Both the position numbers and the translations under genes were made by a program. Below are positions 58,183 to 64,000 of a stretch of 64,000 bases of DNA, in pieces; position 1 is the first letter of the stretch; every line of letters begins with the position of its first letter. The DNA comes from a virus: the IMG/VR virus record IMGVR_UViG_3300025815_002670, positions 13,671 through 77,670 of that record, one strand, 5' to 3'. The notes under the pieces are model-generated. The model did no database searches, was not told where the DNA came from, and saw only the letters and a program-made list of their open reading frames with translations.

Positions 58183-58635
58183 ATGAAGATCACAAAGTCA
58201 GAACTCAGAAAGATCATCAAGGAAGAGTTGGCAAACACACTTTCTGAAGTGGGCACCATTGAGCCTTATGTCGGCCCGCAACCGAAAAATAAGAGAAACT
58301 ATGCAAAACTTCTAATGCGCATTGCTCCACTTGAGGGCTTGGGCGATCAGATCAGAAAGAAGCTTGGTTTTAACCAGAAAGAATATGAAAACTGCGCAGA
58401 TCCGCGATACAAAACAAGATTCGTAGAAGGCGAACAGTGGGAATCCACCAAGGCAAAGGTTGGTCTTGCGCTTAGGCGTCTTCCTACTGCGGCCAAGCAG
58501 AGCATCATGTATGACGAGATCATGGGTCGTCTTGCCCAAGACAAGCTAGATCGTTGTGAAATCTATGATTTTACATCTGCTTTTGACGAACTATATGTTG
58601 AGTTAGAGGGCTTGGCAAAGGATGGAGATCTATGA
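58183..58635 (+). CDS. Shared-leader protein 1 (MKITKSELRKIIKEEL)
   Basis: AAGGAG RBS; conserved 16-aa leader, unique body. Confidence 0.8.
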   Translation: MKITKSELRKIIKEELANTLSEVGTIEPYVGPQPKNKRNYAKLLMRIAPLEGLGDQIRKKLGFNQKEYENCADPRYKTRFVEGEQWESTKAKVGLALRRLPTAAKQSIMYDEIMGRLAQDKLDRCEIYDFTSAFDELYVELEGLAKDGDL

Positions 58636-59027
58636 AGATCACGAAGGCGCAACTTAGAAATTTTATCAAGGAAGAGTTAGCCTCCAATCTGTCAGAAGCC
58701 GATGTCCTTGACTTCCCAGGAGACAGGGTAAGTCCTGGTGCTTCCGGTGAAGGCGAAGGCGAGGTTGTCCCTCTTAAAAAGGACGAACCAGCCGGTCTTA
58801 CTCTTACGGATAAAGAAATGGCAATAGGCGTCTATGGCATGGTTCTTGGCTTCCTTATTGGAACAAAGGCTCGTCGCGATGTTGATATTGAGGAGATCCA
58901 GGGTGGGAACCCAGAACTTTTCCAGGCGCTTATAAATGCCGTTGCGGCAGATCAGATCGCATTTGCACAAGACTGGATGAACATGCCCGAGGGCGAATTT
59001 AGAGCGAAGCATTTACCAGGCTTCTAA
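58632..59027 (+). CDS. Shared-leader protein 2 (MKITKAQLRNFIKEEL)
   Basis: Leader plus hydrophobic segment AIGVYGMVLGFLIG. Confidence 0.8.
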   Translation: MKITKAQLRNFIKEELASNLSEADVLDFPGDRVSPGASGEGEGEVVPLKKDEPAGLTLTDKEMAIGVYGMVLGFLIGTKARRDVDIEEIQGGNPELFQALINAVAADQIAFAQDWMNMPEGEFRAKHLPGF

Positions 59028-59039
59028 AGGAATAGAACT

Positions 59040-59399
59040 ATGAAGATTACAAAGACACAACTCCGTCAGATCATCAAGGAAGAGCTTGACGCCACTATGG
59101 AAGAAGGAATGTTCGGAGATTTGGGTGCTAAAATCTCAGCCGGAATCAAAGAAATTCTTATGTTCCCTACTAATCTAGTAGCTGCTGGCATGTTGGTTTA
59201 CCTTGACACTGTGGCACCAAGAAACGACATTGACATAAAAGAACTAGCAAATGATAACGCAGCGATGGACGCATTCCTTAAGAATCTCACTTCAGGTAAT
59301 GGGAAAGCATTCGGCAGCCAGCTTGCAAAAGATTGGACAAACTCAAGAATGAGCAAAGATGAGATTATGTCTAAGTATTTCTCATCTAGTGAAGCTTGA
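59040..59399 (+). CDS. Shared-leader protein 3 (MKITKTQLRQIIKEEL)
   Basis: Leader; body weakly resembles protein 2 (R.DIDI.E....N.....DW.N....E...K). Confidence 0.8.
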   Translation: MKITKTQLRQIIKEELDATMEEGMFGDLGAKISAGIKEILMFPTNLVAAGMLVYLDTVAPRNDIDIKELANDNAAMDAFLKNLTSGNGKAFGSQLAKDWTNSRMSKDEIMSKYFSSSEA

Positions 59400-59482
59400 T
59401 CTCAACTGATCTAACAGACTAGTAAGGAAACAAGACTATGAAATTTACAAAGACACAACTCCGTCAGATCATCAAGGAAGAG
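59047..59482 (+). repeat. 38-nt identical direct repeat (59047-59084 and 59445-59482) encoding the leader
   Basis: TTACAAAGACACAACTCCGTCAGATCATCAAGGAAGAG occurs twice. Confidence 0.9.
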
Positions 59483-59851
59483 TTAGAAACTCTACAAGAA
59501 GACGGACACGAAGATGTTTCTTCGGCAGTCAGAAAACTAAAGACCTCTATTGAGGACGCCACAGAGATCCTACAAGGTCTTCAAGCCCACCAGGGCGATC
59601 TTCCTTCTTGGTGGATGAGCAAGGTAACACTTGCTTCTGACTACCTAAACAAGTGCCGTGATTATTTTCTTGTTTCCGGCGAAGTGATGGAAGAAGAAGT
59701 CGTTGATGAAAAGATAGAAAAGGCTGACGGAGGTTATTTCGTGACCTCCAAGTCAGGGAAGCGTCTTTCAAAGAAGCCGCACGAAACAAAGAAAGCCGCC
59801 CTCGCTCAGTTGGGCGCTGTTGAAGCCAGCAAGGCAAGGAGAGGCAAATGA
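59438..59851 (+). CDS. Shared-leader protein 4 (MKFTKTQLRQIIKEEL), two-module body
   Basis: Helical module DLPSWWMSKVTLASDYL, acidic linker, basic C-terminal module. Confidence 0.8.
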   Translation: MKFTKTQLRQIIKEELETLQEDGHEDVSSAVRKLKTSIEDATEILQGLQAHQGDLPSWWMSKVTLASDYLNKCRDYFLVSGEVMEEEVVDEKIEKADGGYFVTSKSGKRLSKKPHETKKAALAQLGAVEASKARRGK

Positions 59852-60105
59852 AAATAACAAAGACTAGACTAAAAGAGATCATCAAGGAAGAACTTGATAT
59901 GATGAGCGAGGGCAGCGAAGTTGATGCGATCCTTGCTATGCTCGATCCAGAGACGCTTAGCGCCATTAAGATCGTCGCCCAGGCAGCAGGAAAGATGGCT
60001 CCTGGCGCTGCTGGTGTCGCTGCAACCACTTTTGCTGTGGATCAACTAAGGCAAGCGGTAAGCAAGATCAAGGGTGGCAAGCCCGAGGGTGAAGAAAACG
60101 CTTGA
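59848..60105 (+). CDS. Shared-leader protein 5 (MKITKTRLKEIIKEEL)
   Basis: Leader plus Ala/Gly-rich apolar body. Confidence 0.8.
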   Translation: MKITKTRLKEIIKEELDMMSEGSEVDAILAMLDPETLSAIKIVAQAAGKMAPGAAGVAATTFAVDQLRQAVSKIKGGKPEGEENA

Positions 60106-60130
60106 CAAGCCCAGCCCCTTGTGCTACATT
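60102..60130 (+). promoter_or_regulatory. Sigma70-type promoter TTGACA-17-TACATT
   Basis: Upstream of the GAGGGG RBS and the relic Mre11 start at 60155. Confidence 0.7.
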
Positions 60131-60154
60131 ATAATAGTCTGAGGGGTTAGACTT

Positions 60155-60244
60155 TTGAAAATCGCGCATATCGCGGACAATAATAGGGCACATAGCGGAC
60201 ACAAAACTATTTACTATAGTAAGGAGTGTTTGCTATGGCTTTAA
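60155..60244 (+). pseudogene. Relic original 5' end of the Mre11 gene (MKIAHIAD, then unrelated sequence to a stop at 60244)
   Basis: TTG AAA ATC GCG CAT ATC GCG GAC matches metallophosphoesterase motif I and parallels RVAHLADTH at the start of the 60911 ORF; has its own RBS and promoter. Confidence 0.7.
60191..60237 (+). promoter_or_regulatory. RNA hairpin pairing the endonuclease start codon, with the late-promoter motif ACTATTTAC (60206-60214) inside the loop region
   Basis: CATAGCGGACAC (60191-60202) pairs with GTGTTTGCTATG (60226-60237): 12 bp including two G.U. Confidence 0.7.
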
Positions 60245-60921
60245 TTTATATGGTTCTCTTTCCAAACGGCAAGAAGTATATTGGAAAGACTGAACGCGAG
60301 TTATCCGATCGCATGAAAGAACATAAACACCATTCCAAGAATTCAAATCGGCCCCTTTATAACGCAATAAGAAAATATGGTTGGGACAATTTGGAATGGA
60401 TAGTGCTTGACAAGGACGACAATTTTGATTACATTAACAGTAGAGAAAGGGCTCTAATAGACGAGCACGGCTGCCTTAAGCGAGAAAATGGGTACAACTT
60501 GCGAGAAGGTGGAGACGGAGGTCGCCACGCCCAAGACACAAAAGATAAAATTTCTATTTCTAATGCTGGTGAGAAGAATGGTATGTTTGGCCGAAAAGCG
60601 TGGAATAGTGGAAAGAATTTATCTAAACAACACATAGAGAGACTGCGTGAAGCACACAAGGGGCAAATACCTTGGAACAAGGGAAAGAAGTTGCCACCAA
60701 AAGGCCCGCGAAACGAAGAAACAAAGAACAAAATAAGTAAAGCGAATAGTGGGGAGAATAACGGACAAGCAAAATTGACTTGTGAAAAAGTAATAGAGAT
60801 AAGAGAAGCATATTCTAATGGCGGTTTAACTCAACGCCAATTGGCAGAAAAATATAGAGTATCTCAATCCGTAATAAACGGCATAGTAAATAATAAAACC
60901 TGGAGGAACTGTGGGGATTAG
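60235..60921 (+). mobile_element. Free-standing GIY-YIG homing endonuclease with NUMOD3-like repeats and C-terminal HTH
   Basis: LIY..NGKKYIGKT, R..EH, E, GYNL..GG; ETKNKIS and PWNKGK repeats; TQRQLAEKYRVSQSVI; AT-rich relative to flanks. Confidence 0.9.
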
Positions 60922-63900
60922 AGTTGCGCACCTGGCTGACACACATATACGGAATTACAAGTATCACAAAGAGTACCGAGTCATTTTTGACCAGATCTTT
61001 GACCGCTTACGAGAAGAGCAGGTCGATCTGATCGTCCATTGCGGAGACTTGGCTCACACAAAGACACAGTTGTCGCCAGAGTATTTTGACCTTGCGACAC
61101 ACTTCCTTAAGAACCTTGCCGACATTGCCCCAACCTACATCATTTTGGGCAACCACGACGGCAACCTTAAGAACGAACACCGACAGGACGCCATCACACC
61201 AATCGCAAATGCGTTGGCACACAACAACCTTCACCTTCTAAAGAACGCAGGCGAGGTTGTTGTTGGTGATGTTGCCCTAAATGTTCTTTCTGTCTTTGAC
61301 GAAGACAACTGGGTGAAGCCATCCGATCCTTCCCGCATCAACATTGCCCTTTACCACGGCTCTGTTTCGGGTGTGAAGACGGACACGGGCTGGGTGATGG
61401 ATCATGGCGACCATCCCATCAGCATCTTTGAGGGGCACGACTTTGTTCTTCTTGGCGACATTCATAAAACAAACCAGATCCTTGACGATGAGGGTCGGGT
61501 ACGTTATTGCGGAAGCACGATCCAACAAGGGTTTGGTGAGACAAACGACAAGGGCTTCTTGCTTTGGAACATCCAGGGCAAAGATGACTTTACTTGCGAA
61601 CACATCGCAATCGCAAACCCCAAGCCATTCATCACGATCATTCTAACCCCCACCGGTCGGATGCCAAAGGGCTTGAAAGTGCCAAGTGGTGCGCGTTTGC
61701 GTCTTGTTTCCAATAACAACTTGTCTCTTGAGACGATGCGAAAGGCTATTGAGGTCGCAAAGCATCGTTTCAAGCCCGATACCATTACCTTCCTCAACCG
61801 CGCAGCAGGGGAACGCGGGAATGTTGAGGAACTAACGGAAGGTCTTCAGCAAGATGACATGCGAGATCCAGCCATCCAAGAGGAGTTGATCCGCGAATAT
61901 CTTACTGACTACCAAGTTGATGAAGAAATAATGAAGAGAGTTCTTGACCTCAACTCTACTCTTACAAAGAAGGCAGAGGAAGACGAGGAGATCTCAAGAA
62001 ACATCAAGTGGCGAATCAACGAACTTGCTTGGTCAAACCTTTTCAACTACGGGGAAGACAACAGGATTGACTTTTCTCGCCTCAACGGCACCGTTGGCAT
62101 CTTCGGCAAGAACTATTCAGGCAAGTCCTCCGTTATTGACACCTTGCTCTACACGCTCTACAACACCACATCAAAGAACGAGCGGAGAAATGTTAACATC
62201 ATCAACCAGAATAAGACCGAGGGTGTAGGCGAGGTTTCCATTTCTATTGGCGACGACACCTATTATGTCCGTCGCGTCTCTACAAAGTACACAAAGCGTC
62301 TCAAGGGCGTGGAAACACTTGAGGCAAAGACCGATCTTGACTTTTACAAGATCGACGCAGATGGCGAAAGGATAAGTTTGAATGGACTCACAAGAATCGA
62401 CACGGACAAAAACATCAGAAAAGTCTTCGGAACCATTGATGACTTTCTTCTTACTAGTTTGTCTAGCCAGTTGGACAGTCTTTCCTTTATTCGGGAGGGC
62501 AGCACAAAGAGGAAAGAGATCCTTGCGAAGTTCTTGGACTTGGAGATCTTTGAAAAGAAGTTCCGCTTGGCTAAGGAAGAAGCGGCAGACATGAAGGGCG
62601 CTCTTCGTCGCCTGGAAGGCAGGGAATACGACACCGAGTTGGAGGAGGCAAAGAAAGAACTGCGCCTCTCAGAAGCTAACTTGGAAGCCCAGACCCGCAC
62701 TTGCCAGGAGATCGAAGGCATCATCGCTGACCTCCATAAGCAGAAGGGCGAGGTTGATGGAAAAATAGATTCCATCCCAGCAGAAATGATCGACATTGCC
62801 CAGGTCAAGGTGGACATTCGTCAAAAGCGAGTTGCCCTTACAACTGCACAAAAGAACCTTGAAGGCGACAAAAAGACCCTGAAAGATAAGAAGGCTTTGC
62901 TCGCAAAGATTACCGAGTTCGTTGAAAACTACGACATTGACGATCTAAAAAACAAAAAGACAGAAGCAAACAAGATCACTTTGACCCTCAACGGTCTCCA
63001 AAAAGACCTAACGATCCTTGAAGAAAAGGTTTCTTCCCTAAGCGACCCTGGTTTCCTCCGTGGCTGCAAGTGTCTCCACGAGGCAGAGAAGGCACAAGAG
63101 CAGAAGCCTAATGTAGAGGAAAAGATCAGCATCTTCACAACCGAACTGGAAGGTCTAAACCTCCCAGAAACAACCAAGAAGATCGACCAGCACGCCGCCC
63201 TTCTAACAAAGAAGAGCAACACCTCACAGGAAATAACAAAGACCGAACTTTCTATTGCTCGCAATCAAAACCTCATAAACCGCCTCGCCAACGAACTAAC
63301 GGCTCTTATGGCAAAGGAGACGGCTTATGAAGAGAACAGGGAGGCCATTGAAAACTTGGAAGCCCTTATTGTAGAGCAAAAGACCATCGGATCGCTTATT
63401 TCCGGTAGGACAAGGGAACTAAACGGCTGCAAGACAAAGATCAATAACCTCAACCGTCAGGTCGGTTCTTTGGAGCAAAAGGTAGAAAACATCAAAGAGC
63501 AAAAGCAGGAGTTTATTGACCTCCGCGAGCAGTTCTCGGCTTATGACCTTTACATGCGTTGCATGCACCCAAACGGCATTGCTTACGATGTCATCAAAAA
63601 GAAGTTGCCCGTCATCAACCAAGAGATCGCAAAGGTCTTGGCAAACCTAACAAACTTTGAGGTCTTGTTTGAGGAGGACGGAAACAAGTTGGAGATCCTC
63701 ATTAAGCATCCAGCCCACGAGCCACGACCGCTTTCTATGGCATCAGGCGCGGAAAAGACGATGGCTGCTATGGCTATTCGCCTTGCTTTCCTCTCCGTTT
63801 CCAACCTTCCAACCAGCGACATTATGGTTTTGGACGAGCCAGGAACAGCACTGGACGAAGACCATCTTCAGTCCTTTACCCAACTGTTAGACATGATCAA

Positions 63901-64000
63901 GGGCTATTTTAAGACTATTCTTCTCATTTCTCACCTTGATTCTCTCAAGGACATAGCAGACATGACCCTTGACATAACCAGAAAAAACGATTACGCTTTC
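60911..64000 (+). CDS. Mre11(SbcD/gp47)-Rad50(SbcC/gp46) fusion, at least 1030 aa, truncated by the window end
   Basis: One open frame from GTG 60911 (GGAGG RBS): AHLADTH, CGD, GNHD, YHG, LGDIH nuclease motifs, then Walker A GKNYSGKS (62105), coiled coils, signature SGAEK, Walker B VLDEP, H-loop ISH. Confidence 0.92.
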   Translation, partial: MGIRVAHLADTHIRNYKYHKEYRVIFDQIFDRLREEQVDLIVHCGDLAHTKTQLSPEYFDLATHFLKNLADIAPTYIILGNHDGNLKNEHRQDAITPIANALAHNNLHLLKNAGEVVVGDVALNVLSVFDEDNWVKPSDPSRINIALYHGSVSGVKTDTGWVMDHGDHPISIFEGHDFVLLGDIHKTNQILDDEGRVRYCGSTIQQGFGETNDKGFLLWNIQGKDDFTCEHIAIANPKPFITIILTPTGRMPKGLKVPSGARLRLVSNNNLSLETMRKAIEVAKHRFKPDTITFLNRAAGERGNVEELTEGLQQDDMRDPAIQEELIREYLTDYQVDEEIMKRVLDLNSTLTKKAEEDEEISRNIKWRINELAWSNLFNYGEDNRIDFSRLNGTVGIFGKNYSGKSSVIDTLLYTLYNTTSKNERRNVNIINQNKTEGVGEVSISIGDDTYYVRRVSTKYTKRLKGVETLEAKTDLDFYKIDADGERISLNGLTRIDTDKNIRKVFGTIDDFLLTSLSSQLDSLSFIREGSTKRKEILAKFLDLEIFEKKFRLAKEEAADMKGALRRLEGREYDTELEEAKKELRLSEANLEAQTRTCQEIEGIIADLHKQKGEVDGKIDSIPAEMIDIAQVKVDIRQKRVALTTAQKNLEGDKKTLKDKKALLAKITEFVENYDIDDLKNKKTEANKITLTLNGLQKDLTILEEKVSSLSDPGFLRGCKCLHEAEKAQEQKPNVEEKISIFTTELEGLNLPETTKKIDQHAALLTKKSNTSQEITKTELSIARNQNLINRLANELTALMAKETAYEENREAIENLEALIVEQKTIGSLISGRTRELNGCKTKINNLNRQVGSLEQKVENIKEQKQEFIDLREQFSAYDLYMRCMHPNGIAYDVIKKKLPVINQEIAKVLANLTNFEVLFEEDGNKLEILIKHPAHEPRPLSMASGAEKTMAAMAIRLAFLSVSNLPTSDIMVLDEPGTALDEDHLQSFTQLLDMIKGYFKTILLISHLDSLKDIADMTLDITRKNDYAF

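Follow-up and report, generated by a model that had tools for sequence, protein, structure and literature searches.

A GIY-YIG endonuclease cassette in the motif I codons of a marine phage Mre11-Rad50 gene that appears to restart its host gene from a recoded N-terminus

Homing endonucleases are thought to persist in essential genes by means of introns or inteins, or by splitting the gene into pieces that assemble. How, then, might a gene remain functional when an endonuclease gene separates its first codons from the remainder? This question is raised by a locus in an uncultured marine phage, in which a free-standing GIY-YIG homing endonuclease gene lies within the codons for nuclease motif I (D-T-H) of a gene for an Mre11-Rad50 (SbcD-SbcC) fusion protein. 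All coordinates given here refer to the window, a 64-kb stretch at the end of a 77.7-kb IMG/VR virus contig (IMGVR_UViG_3300025815_002670). Our sequence comparisons make it likely that the endonuclease is of homing origin and that it carries a replacement start for the gene that it interrupts, with no splicing involved. The locus is laid out as follows (nt, nucleotides; aa, amino acids; RBS, ribosome-binding site; ORF, open reading frame; UTR, untranslated region).

60102-60130, + strand: native sigma-70-like promoter of the Mre11-Rad50 gene (TTGACA, 17-nt spacer, TACATT, with TG before the -10 box; 10/12 matches in a promoter scan)
60141-60178, + strand: native RBS GAGGGG (60141-60146), start codon TTG (60155) and eight native codons, together remnant copy 1, aligning with endonuclease-free relatives
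60155-60244, + strand: 29-aa leader ORF (from the ORF list) running from the native TTG through the endonuclease 5' UTR; its stop (60242-60244) lies 7 nt past the endonuclease ATG and overlaps the endonuclease start
60180-60203, + strand: second, start-less copy of the severed codons (copy 2), reading I I G H I A D T, with the core CAC ATA GCG GAC ACA at 60189-60203
60204-60216, + strand: left end of the element, AAACTATTTAYTA, with the ACTATTTA motif inside it; conserved in the window and in loci L083, L011, L093, L094-L097 and L095
60235-60921, + strand: free-standing GIY-YIG homing endonuclease gene of 228 aa (GIY-YIG, three NUMOD3, HTH), with RBS AAGGAG, ATG at 60235 and stop codon TAG at 60919-60921
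60902-60943, + strand: element-borne RBS GGAGG (60902-60906, in the W-R codons of the endonuclease), followed by GTG (60911) and copy 3, the recoded N-terminus M G I R V A H L A D T
60911-64000, + strand: intact gene for the Mre11-Rad50 (SbcD-SbcC) fusion, its frame still open after 1030 aa where the contig ends

The first-pass annotation of this DNA, made from its letters alone, had described a sigma-70 promoter, an RBS and a TTG opening MKIAHIAD, then a GIY-YIG gene, and a new GGAGG and GTG in the last codons of that gene, overlapping its stop. All of these are present, the overlap being 11 nt. Pfam confirms the endonuclease, with a GIY-YIG domain (PF01541, E 5e-9, residues 2-80), NUMOD3 in three stretches (PF07460, E 1.6e-12) and HTH_3 (PF01381) at residues 195-222. 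Residues Y5, Y15-I16-G17, R26, H30, E71 and N88, the counterparts of the I-TevI catalytic set, are invariant in a three-lineage alignment (A2). The gene occurs once in the 77.7-kb contig, and its family comprises at least 52 protein clusters at E<=1e-30. The same annotation had named the host gene Mre11, which holds for its Metallophos domain (PF00149, residues 3-185) but not for the gene as a whole. Since SMC_N (PF02463, residues 369-1024) and AAA_23 (PF13476) follow in the same full-length ORF, which has no internal stop or gap, the host gene is an Mre11-Rad50 fusion rather than Mre11 alone. Its nearest match among cultured proteins, at 30% identity over 99% of the query, is from Microcystis phage Mel-JY01 and is annotated only as 'AAA domain containing protein'; a blastn search of 59000-63000 against cultured phage genomes gave no match. 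Joining of Mre11 and Rad50 in one polypeptide of ~1045 aa was seen throughout this group of uncultured marine phages (loci L003-L081, on contigs of up to ~200 kb).

What did the gene look like before the insertion? A scan of viral contigs with the nuclease domain yielded 80 related loci from marine and aquatic metagenomes, several on contigs of 170-200 kb, all of them fused genes of ~1045 aa. The closest endonuclease-free relatives (L003-L006, 81-83% aa identity) have TTGACA, a -10 box, AGGGGTTA and a TTG. This start codon is followed directly by AAA ATA GCA CAT CTT GCG GAT ACT CAT, that is MKIAHLADTHIRNYKYHK, the consensus being MK[IF]AH[LI]ADTHIRNYKYHK. A contiguous start of the MKIAHIADTH type had been predicted for such relatives, and the nearest ones indeed have MKIAHLADTH or MKFAHIADTH behind a matching promoter and RBS; a VGIRVAH-type start was not seen among uninterrupted relatives in the window's clade. 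Positions 60088-60178 of the window, including TTGACA and the -10 region, can be aligned column by column with the closest endonuclease-free relatives. In L003-L005 the promoter, RBS, TTG and eight codons can be aligned with the window base for base, with similarity ending after GCGGAYA, and the resemblance of the remnant is therefore not due to chance. Copy 1 (60155-60178) reads TTG AAA ATC GCG CAT ATC GCG GAC, or MKIAHIAD, and past 60178 the Mre11-like reading of the native frame is lost. The contiguous D-T-H in endonuclease-free relatives, which is kept in 49 distinct native alleles, bears out the earlier proposal that the element inserted at a conserved active-site codon block.

The host protein resumes within the endonuclease gene. 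GTG 60911 is the first start codon past an in-frame TAA at 60887-60889 and yields MGIRVAHLADTHIRNY, the restarted Mre11-Rad50 gene beginning MGIRVAHLADTH; the fused proteins of the relatives are ~1045-1055 aa long. This arrangement is found in every copy of the element: the endonuclease ends with ...N-x-K-x-W-R..., its W-R codons supply GGAG[GA], and a start codon, GTG or ATG, stands no more than a few bases further on. The complete design, K-x-W-R/GGAG[GA]/start/x..[RK]x[AC]H[LV][AS]DT, occurs in L083, L011, L093, L094, L096, L099, L100 and L175. In L096 (93-806) the endonuclease ORF lacks the usual stop, is ~50 nt longer (238 aa) and crosses the new Mre11-Rad50 start.

Because the arrangement is also present in L002, a 99%-identical contig, and in the diverged L083, it is not an assembly artefact. 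The three parts (remnant, endonuclease and restart) are complete in L083, L011, L093, L094/L098, L096 and L175. In L097 they are seen as far as an endonuclease that is truncated and in L095 as far as the stop codon of the endonuclease; L099 and L100 show the right side alone. Relative to the window, endonuclease aa identity is 82% for L083, 57% for L011, 54-60% for L093, L094/L098, L096, L097 and L095, 58% for L175 and 43-55% for L099 and L100. At least six diverged lineages, sampled in different metagenomes, thus share the architecture, and their endonucleases are 42-88% identical; we count ~6-7 lineages as independent. Nonsynonymous (dN) and synonymous (dS) divergence of the endonuclease were 0.107 and 1.31 between the window and L083 (dN/dS ~0.08), and 0.063 and 0.315 between L094 and L096 (dN/dS 0.20), values that indicate strong purifying selection on the endonuclease.

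Since the element re-creates the host N-terminus, a near-copy of its own target arises at its right end. How might this copy escape cleavage? We compared its codons with those of the native alleles. At the Ile/Leu codon, NTG was found in 6/9 element copies and 3/49 distinct native alleles (Fisher p 1.5e-4), and at the following Ala codon NCT, mostly GCT, was found in 7/9 and 3/49 (p 1.3e-5), statistics that ignore the shared ancestry of the cassettes. The two occur together in four of the nine element copies and in none of the 49 native alleles, and the upstream remnants retain the native ATH GCG. Between lineages, the adjacent ORF has reached saturation at its synonymous sites, so that a T kept at a four-fold degenerate position speaks for selection. 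In addition, the 20-30 nt upstream of the junction, the region in which an I-TevI-like enzyme would cut (position taken from PMC2988022), are replaced by endonuclease coding sequence. The replacement of ATH GCG by NTG GCT thus probably makes the occupied allele uncuttable, an idea of the first-pass annotation to which these comparisons lend support. We infer this immunity with lower confidence than the core mechanism.

Evidence for movement comes from L011, which carries the element, and its close relatives L042 and L010, which do not. In the window's own clade the closest endonuclease-free relative is only 83% identical at the aa level, and the L011 lineage provides the close pair with and without the element. 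L011 and L042/L010 are 97% identical in aa over the first 420 residues and ~95% identical in nt over the gene body, with 93-100% nt identity per 100-nt window over most of the 3 kb past the start and a few windows at 83-91%. The first 100 nt beside the element are only 69% identical, and the best match of this tract, at 85%, lies elsewhere. Such a mosaic flank is the pattern expected of co-conversion during homing, and in this recent case foreign sequence reaches ~100 nt past the recoded codons, which puts the replacement N-terminus at the proximal end of a donor-derived tract. On the other side of the L011 cassette (2190-2260), the promoter and remnant (GTG TAT AGA ATC GCA) agree by eye with L066 over the 15-nt remnant and over 40 nt ahead of the start. 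With an L066-like promoter and remnant and a body closest to L010/L042, L011 is thus a three-way mosaic around the cassette.

Our combined findings suggest the following mechanism. A free-standing, intron-less GIY-YIG cassette would have inserted into the motif I codons of the phage Mre11-Rad50 gene. The mobile unit would consist of a short left arm (AAACTATTTAYTA) with adjoining decayed host codons, the endonuclease gene, the RBS in its last codons, a new start and the first ~10 host codons in recoded form. The full-length repair protein would be translated from the element's own start, and the native promoter, RBS, start and eight codons would persist merely as a short leader. To spread, the cassette would cut alleles that lack the endonuclease, at or close to the D-T-H codons, and repair would then copy it in together with some of the adjacent host-gene sequence; the recoded copy would probably protect the occupied allele from further cutting. 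Because the RBS and start of an essential gene lie inside the endonuclease ORF, clean deletion of the element would be disfavoured.

Where exactly does the element begin? All cassettes share the left end RAAACTATTTAYTA, preceded by CAY WTA GCG GAY ACR (codons H-[IL]-A-D-T). This block precedes AAACTATTTA in L011, L093 and L095 and is present in decayed form in L094-L097. In L095 a single remnant, ATG AAG TTT GCC CAT ATT GCG GAC ACG, whose ATG stands directly behind a TGnTATAAT-like box, is joined directly to AAACTATTTAC. Since this single remnant and copy 2 both end there, the element-side junction lies after the Thr codon of D-T-H (ACR/AAACTATTTA). The break had been placed just before T-H in the first-pass annotation, which is correct for copy 1, ending after the Asp codon, but not for the element-side junction. 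A search of viral contigs with the conserved left-end motif returned only three contigs, all already known.

Copy 2 in the window abuts the element end, is out of frame with copy 1 and equals native codons 2-9 at 19/24 nt (counted by eye). Tandem pairs of upstream remnant copies are found in the window and L083, L011, L094-L097 and L175; in three lineages the upstream copy ends after GAY(A), and in L011 its last codon is codon 5. The copies are decaying: besides this truncation in L011, the second copy in L094-L097 reads KFAHLSLT, with the metal-binding Asp lost, and the copy in L093 is without a start codon. We had considered that the ATA heading copy 2 is a mutated start codon, and dropped this since ATA is the native second codon in the L094 lineage. 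One ancestral illegitimate join, with copy 1 later serving as left homology arm, is a possible origin of the pairs, and so are repeated microhomology joins (ATA is found at the junctions in L094 and L175); L095 could possibly represent a secondary deletion between repeats. Illegitimate repair under limited exon homology is described as a route of intron acquisition in T4, in a passage of PMC2988022 that cites another paper. The break points of the remnant copies, after GAY A and after ACR, are 2 nt apart. GIY-YIG enzymes typically leave a 2-nt 3' overhang (PMC2330249); the offset would fit such an overhang and, speculatively, may mark the cleavage site itself.

Copy 2 may also have acquired a role in expression of the endonuclease. 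Two further features bear on this.

60184-60243, + strand: RNA hairpin in which copy 2 pairs with the start codon of the endonuclease and with the final bases of its RBS (minimum free energy -31.4 kcal/mol for 60150-60270, z -3.7)
462, 4226, 25615, 33642, 36676, 47312, 50701, 53372, 58127 and 60206, + strand: ACTATTTA sites, from a motif count

The 5' arm of the hairpin is copy 2, its 3' arm consists of the last RBS bases and the ATG, and its loop holds ACTATTTA. Positions 60179-60243 form a 65-nt run that is identical in the window and L083 despite a dS of 1.3 in the adjacent ORF. All 10 occurrences of ACTATTTA in the window are on the + strand, against 1.9 expected on both strands, and seven of them precede a start codon that has an RBS, at a distance of ~20-55 nt. 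We consider this motif a candidate phage-specific, perhaps late, promoter motif. Translation of the endonuclease in the window lineage is probably gated by a hairpin that buries its start codon. The sequence accommodates either of two alternatives: leader translation may open the hairpin and couple endonuclease synthesis to early transcripts, or the hairpin may restrict endonuclease synthesis to transcripts from the ACTATTTA motif. In the T4 paradigm, a hairpin is combined with an internal late promoter, and a homing-site-like sequence lies beside the promoter (PMC2988022); by analogy, the window hairpin with ACTATTTA in its loop would match this arrangement. Our confidence in these regulatory details is lower than in the core mechanism. 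A second TTGACA-17-TACATT site, with hexamers identical to those of the native promoter at 60102, is located inside the endonuclease ORF (60407-60435). L083 keeps both hexamers of this internal site (TTGACA ... TATATT), with a 17-nt spacer that differs at many positions. As in T4 seg genes, it may serve as a promoter, carried within the endonuclease ORF, from which the downstream Mre11-Rad50 gene is transcribed.

Several observations weigh against the reading of the locus as a homing cassette with these properties, in addition to the shared ancestry behind the recoding counts. No derivation of the two tandem upstream remnant copies by ordinary two-sided homologous repair was found. The hairpin is strong in the window and L083 and in L095 only (z -4.8, -5.7 and -3.3), and is near the shuffle level in L011, L093, L094, L097 and L175. 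Being significant in two lineages only, it was rejected as a rule for the family. Translational coupling of leader and endonuclease was likewise rejected as a family rule: the leader stop overlaps the endonuclease start in only three of the ~six lineages (the window and L083, L011 with TAATG, and L095 with GTGA), and lies 68-98 nt inside the endonuclease ORF in L094-L097 and ~30 nt upstream of it in L175. Finally, endonuclease identity roughly tracks host-gene identity, and inheritance by descent, with a loss now and then, could account for much of the distribution without frequent homing. In the window's clade, too, endonuclease and host gene have in part descended together over a long time.

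This last observation bears on the alternative that survives best, namely that the cassette is an immobile, domesticated relic, retained only since its deletion removes the RBS and start of an essential gene. Both the roughly parallel divergence of endonuclease and host gene and the embedding of these signals in the endonuclease ORF are in keeping with it, and a similar logic of retention has been described for T4 seg/mob genes (PMC2988022). However, retention of the 3' end alone would not require the purifying selection seen over the whole endonuclease, including its catalytic domain (dN/dS 0.08), nor does a relic fit the presence/absence polymorphism between close alleles with its mosaic flank. 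We therefore regard a purely domesticated relic as unlikely.

Less probable still is an insertion of the endonuclease into intergenic space upstream of an intact gene, such that the GIRVAH start is native and MKIAHIAD is a foreign fragment or a local duplication. Endonuclease-free relatives in other clades do begin with similar three-residue leads (MGYKIAH, MSYKVAH), and the length of MGIRVAH is within this natural variation. Yet it is the closest endonuclease-free clade that the upstream piece matches, promoter and RBS included, and copy 3 has its start and RBS within the endonuclease ORF, which they accompany in all lineages. Moreover, copy 3 has the cassette-wide NTG GCT signature, both parts of which are together in 0/49 native alleles, and the first 100 nt in L011 are foreign beside a body that closely matches L042.

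Could the endonuclease instead reside in a self-splicing group I or group II intron, or in another spliced element, with the mRNA joining MKIAHIAD to THIRN and the downstream start being incidental? The remnant and the body can be joined in frame (60178 to 60941), and short unannotated N-terminal exons do adjoin phage endonuclease genes, for example in the ICP1 terminase gene (PMC10448857). A search of 59500-61500 with cmscan against Rfam at E<=10 found no group I or II intron and only a chance miRNA match, and none of six related loci (L083, L011 and L093-L096) had an Rfam match at the gathering score. As the first-pass annotation had argued, there is no room for a group I intron core, with 56 nt between the remnant and the endonuclease ATG and 0 nt after the endonuclease stop. 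Across lineages copy 3 keeps x-[RK]-x-[AC]-H-[LV]-[AS]-D-T-H by synonymous change, always with its own RBS and start, whereas the upstream copies decay by truncation (L011), loss of the Asp (L094) or lack of a start codon (L093), which is incompatible with a function as exons. A spliced element is thus by far the least credible of these explanations. Ribosomal bypass of ~760 nt and an intein were rejected on frame, on distance and on the presence of a complete restart. The conserved downstream copy, the decaying upstream copies and the lack of an intron signal support the proposal, made in the first-pass annotation, that a re-encoded N-terminus keeps the host gene working; the full-length protein would need neither RNA nor protein splicing.

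How does this homing cassette compare with known systems? The closest functional analogue is the MobA element of T4-like phages, which inserts into a topoisomerase ORF (gene 39/60) at a metal-binding motif, deletes 55-75 nt and supplies a diverged homologous region (HomR, 67-81% DNA identity) in an N-terminal extension overlapping the endonuclease ORF; it occupies one site in several clades, alongside near-identical empty alleles (bioRxiv 10.1101/2022.08.31.505936). Both are free-standing endonucleases inside an essential ORF at a metal-binding motif, without an intron or intein, and both supply a diverged replacement of the target segment, encoded out of frame with and overlapping the endonuclease ORF; here this is copy 3, with its 11-nt overlap, conserved together with the endonuclease in all lineages. 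MobA differs in being an HNH enzyme, in splitting the gene into two polypeptides that reassemble, in deleting the host segment and in requiring a 50-nt ribosomal bypass for immunity. In contrast, the present element is a GIY-YIG enzyme, the cut lies so near the start that a single full-length protein is made anew, the host segment survives as a leader, and there is no bypass. The analogy is functional and does not imply homology.

Endonuclease genes that travel with a duplicated terminus of the host gene and leave a pseudogene fragment behind are also found in fungal mitochondria. One case is the atp6 hybrid gene of Allomyces, which was reportedly made by an endonuclease gene carrying a duplicated host-gene terminus, as Paquin et al. 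are said to have found in 1994. Free-standing GIY-YIG and LAGLIDADG genes in these genomes are accompanied by partial duplications of atp6, cob and the atp9 N-terminus (PMC7487136, PMC6279837). In contrast to the phage cassette, the fungal cases are mostly C-terminal and often in-frame fusions, have no built-in RBS and start and no overlapping coupled ORFs, and involve neither phages nor Mre11-Rad50.

The T4 Seg/Mob enzymes and I-TevI share with our element the I-TevI domain plan (GIY-YIG with NUMOD3/HTH), co-converted flanks and downstream expression signals inside the endonuclease ORF, and possibly also a hairpin that buries the translation start, with a promoter (here a candidate one) in its loop and a homing-site-like sequence beside it (PMC2988022). 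The T4 seg/mob ORFs carry promoters of downstream essential genes, which favours their retention (PMC2988022). However, the T4 elements occupy introns or intergenic positions, do not supply their targets with new first codons and have only promoters embedded; here the start codon and the first ten codons are embedded in addition. Endonuclease insertion in a coding region without splicing is known from Aeh1 nrdA/mobE and split gp43 (PMC2988022, PMC3045599), where both halves are functional and must assemble, whereas here the upstream piece is an eight-codon dead end.

A literature search of incomplete coverage found no phage endonuclease cassette that exchanges the N-terminus of its target for a new one and starts the entire protein afresh, and no endonuclease in Mre11/gp47-type genes, which is weak evidence for novelty. 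Moreover, the MobA cassette and the fungal mitochondrial endonucleases are close precedents that lower it. We tentatively propose, as a reading somewhat less likely than not, that the locus represents a previously undescribed viral 'portable N-terminus' cassette. Such a cassette would target active-site codons near the start of a gene and begin translation of the entire protein anew, at an RBS and recoded codons that it brings along. The displaced codons would be reused, copy 1 as a translated leader and copy 2 as the 5' arm of a hairpin that gates the endonuclease, possibly as an operator-like mimic of the target beside a phage promoter, and the 2-nt offset may mark the cleavage site.

With regard to the persistence of homing endonucleases in essential genes, the locus points to a simpler route, in which a replacement start and N-terminus are supplied, and which is stable over deep divergence in abundant uncultured marine phages of ~170-200 kb. 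By carrying the translation signals of an essential gene, a selfish element can become hard to delete. The cassettes and native alleles furthermore provide natural pairs of presumed target and immune sequences for a GIY-YIG enzyme aimed at Mre11 motif I codons, allowing specificity and immunity to be tested on synthetic substrates. Annotation is affected as well: the host gene can be overlooked or given a wrong start by gene callers, and the family is labelled 'group I intron endonuclease' without an intron. Public sources apply this label to many family members (clusters P0009, P0012, P0014, P0017 and others), and the eight family loci scanned here are without a detectable intron.

Directly upstream of the Mre11-Rad50 promoter lies an array of small genes beginning MKITK.QLR.IIKEEL (window 58183-60105; L011 528-2180), whose number and body vary among relatives. 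This region offers little recombination homology to the left of the cassette, with upstream identity to L003-L005 mostly at 35-50%.

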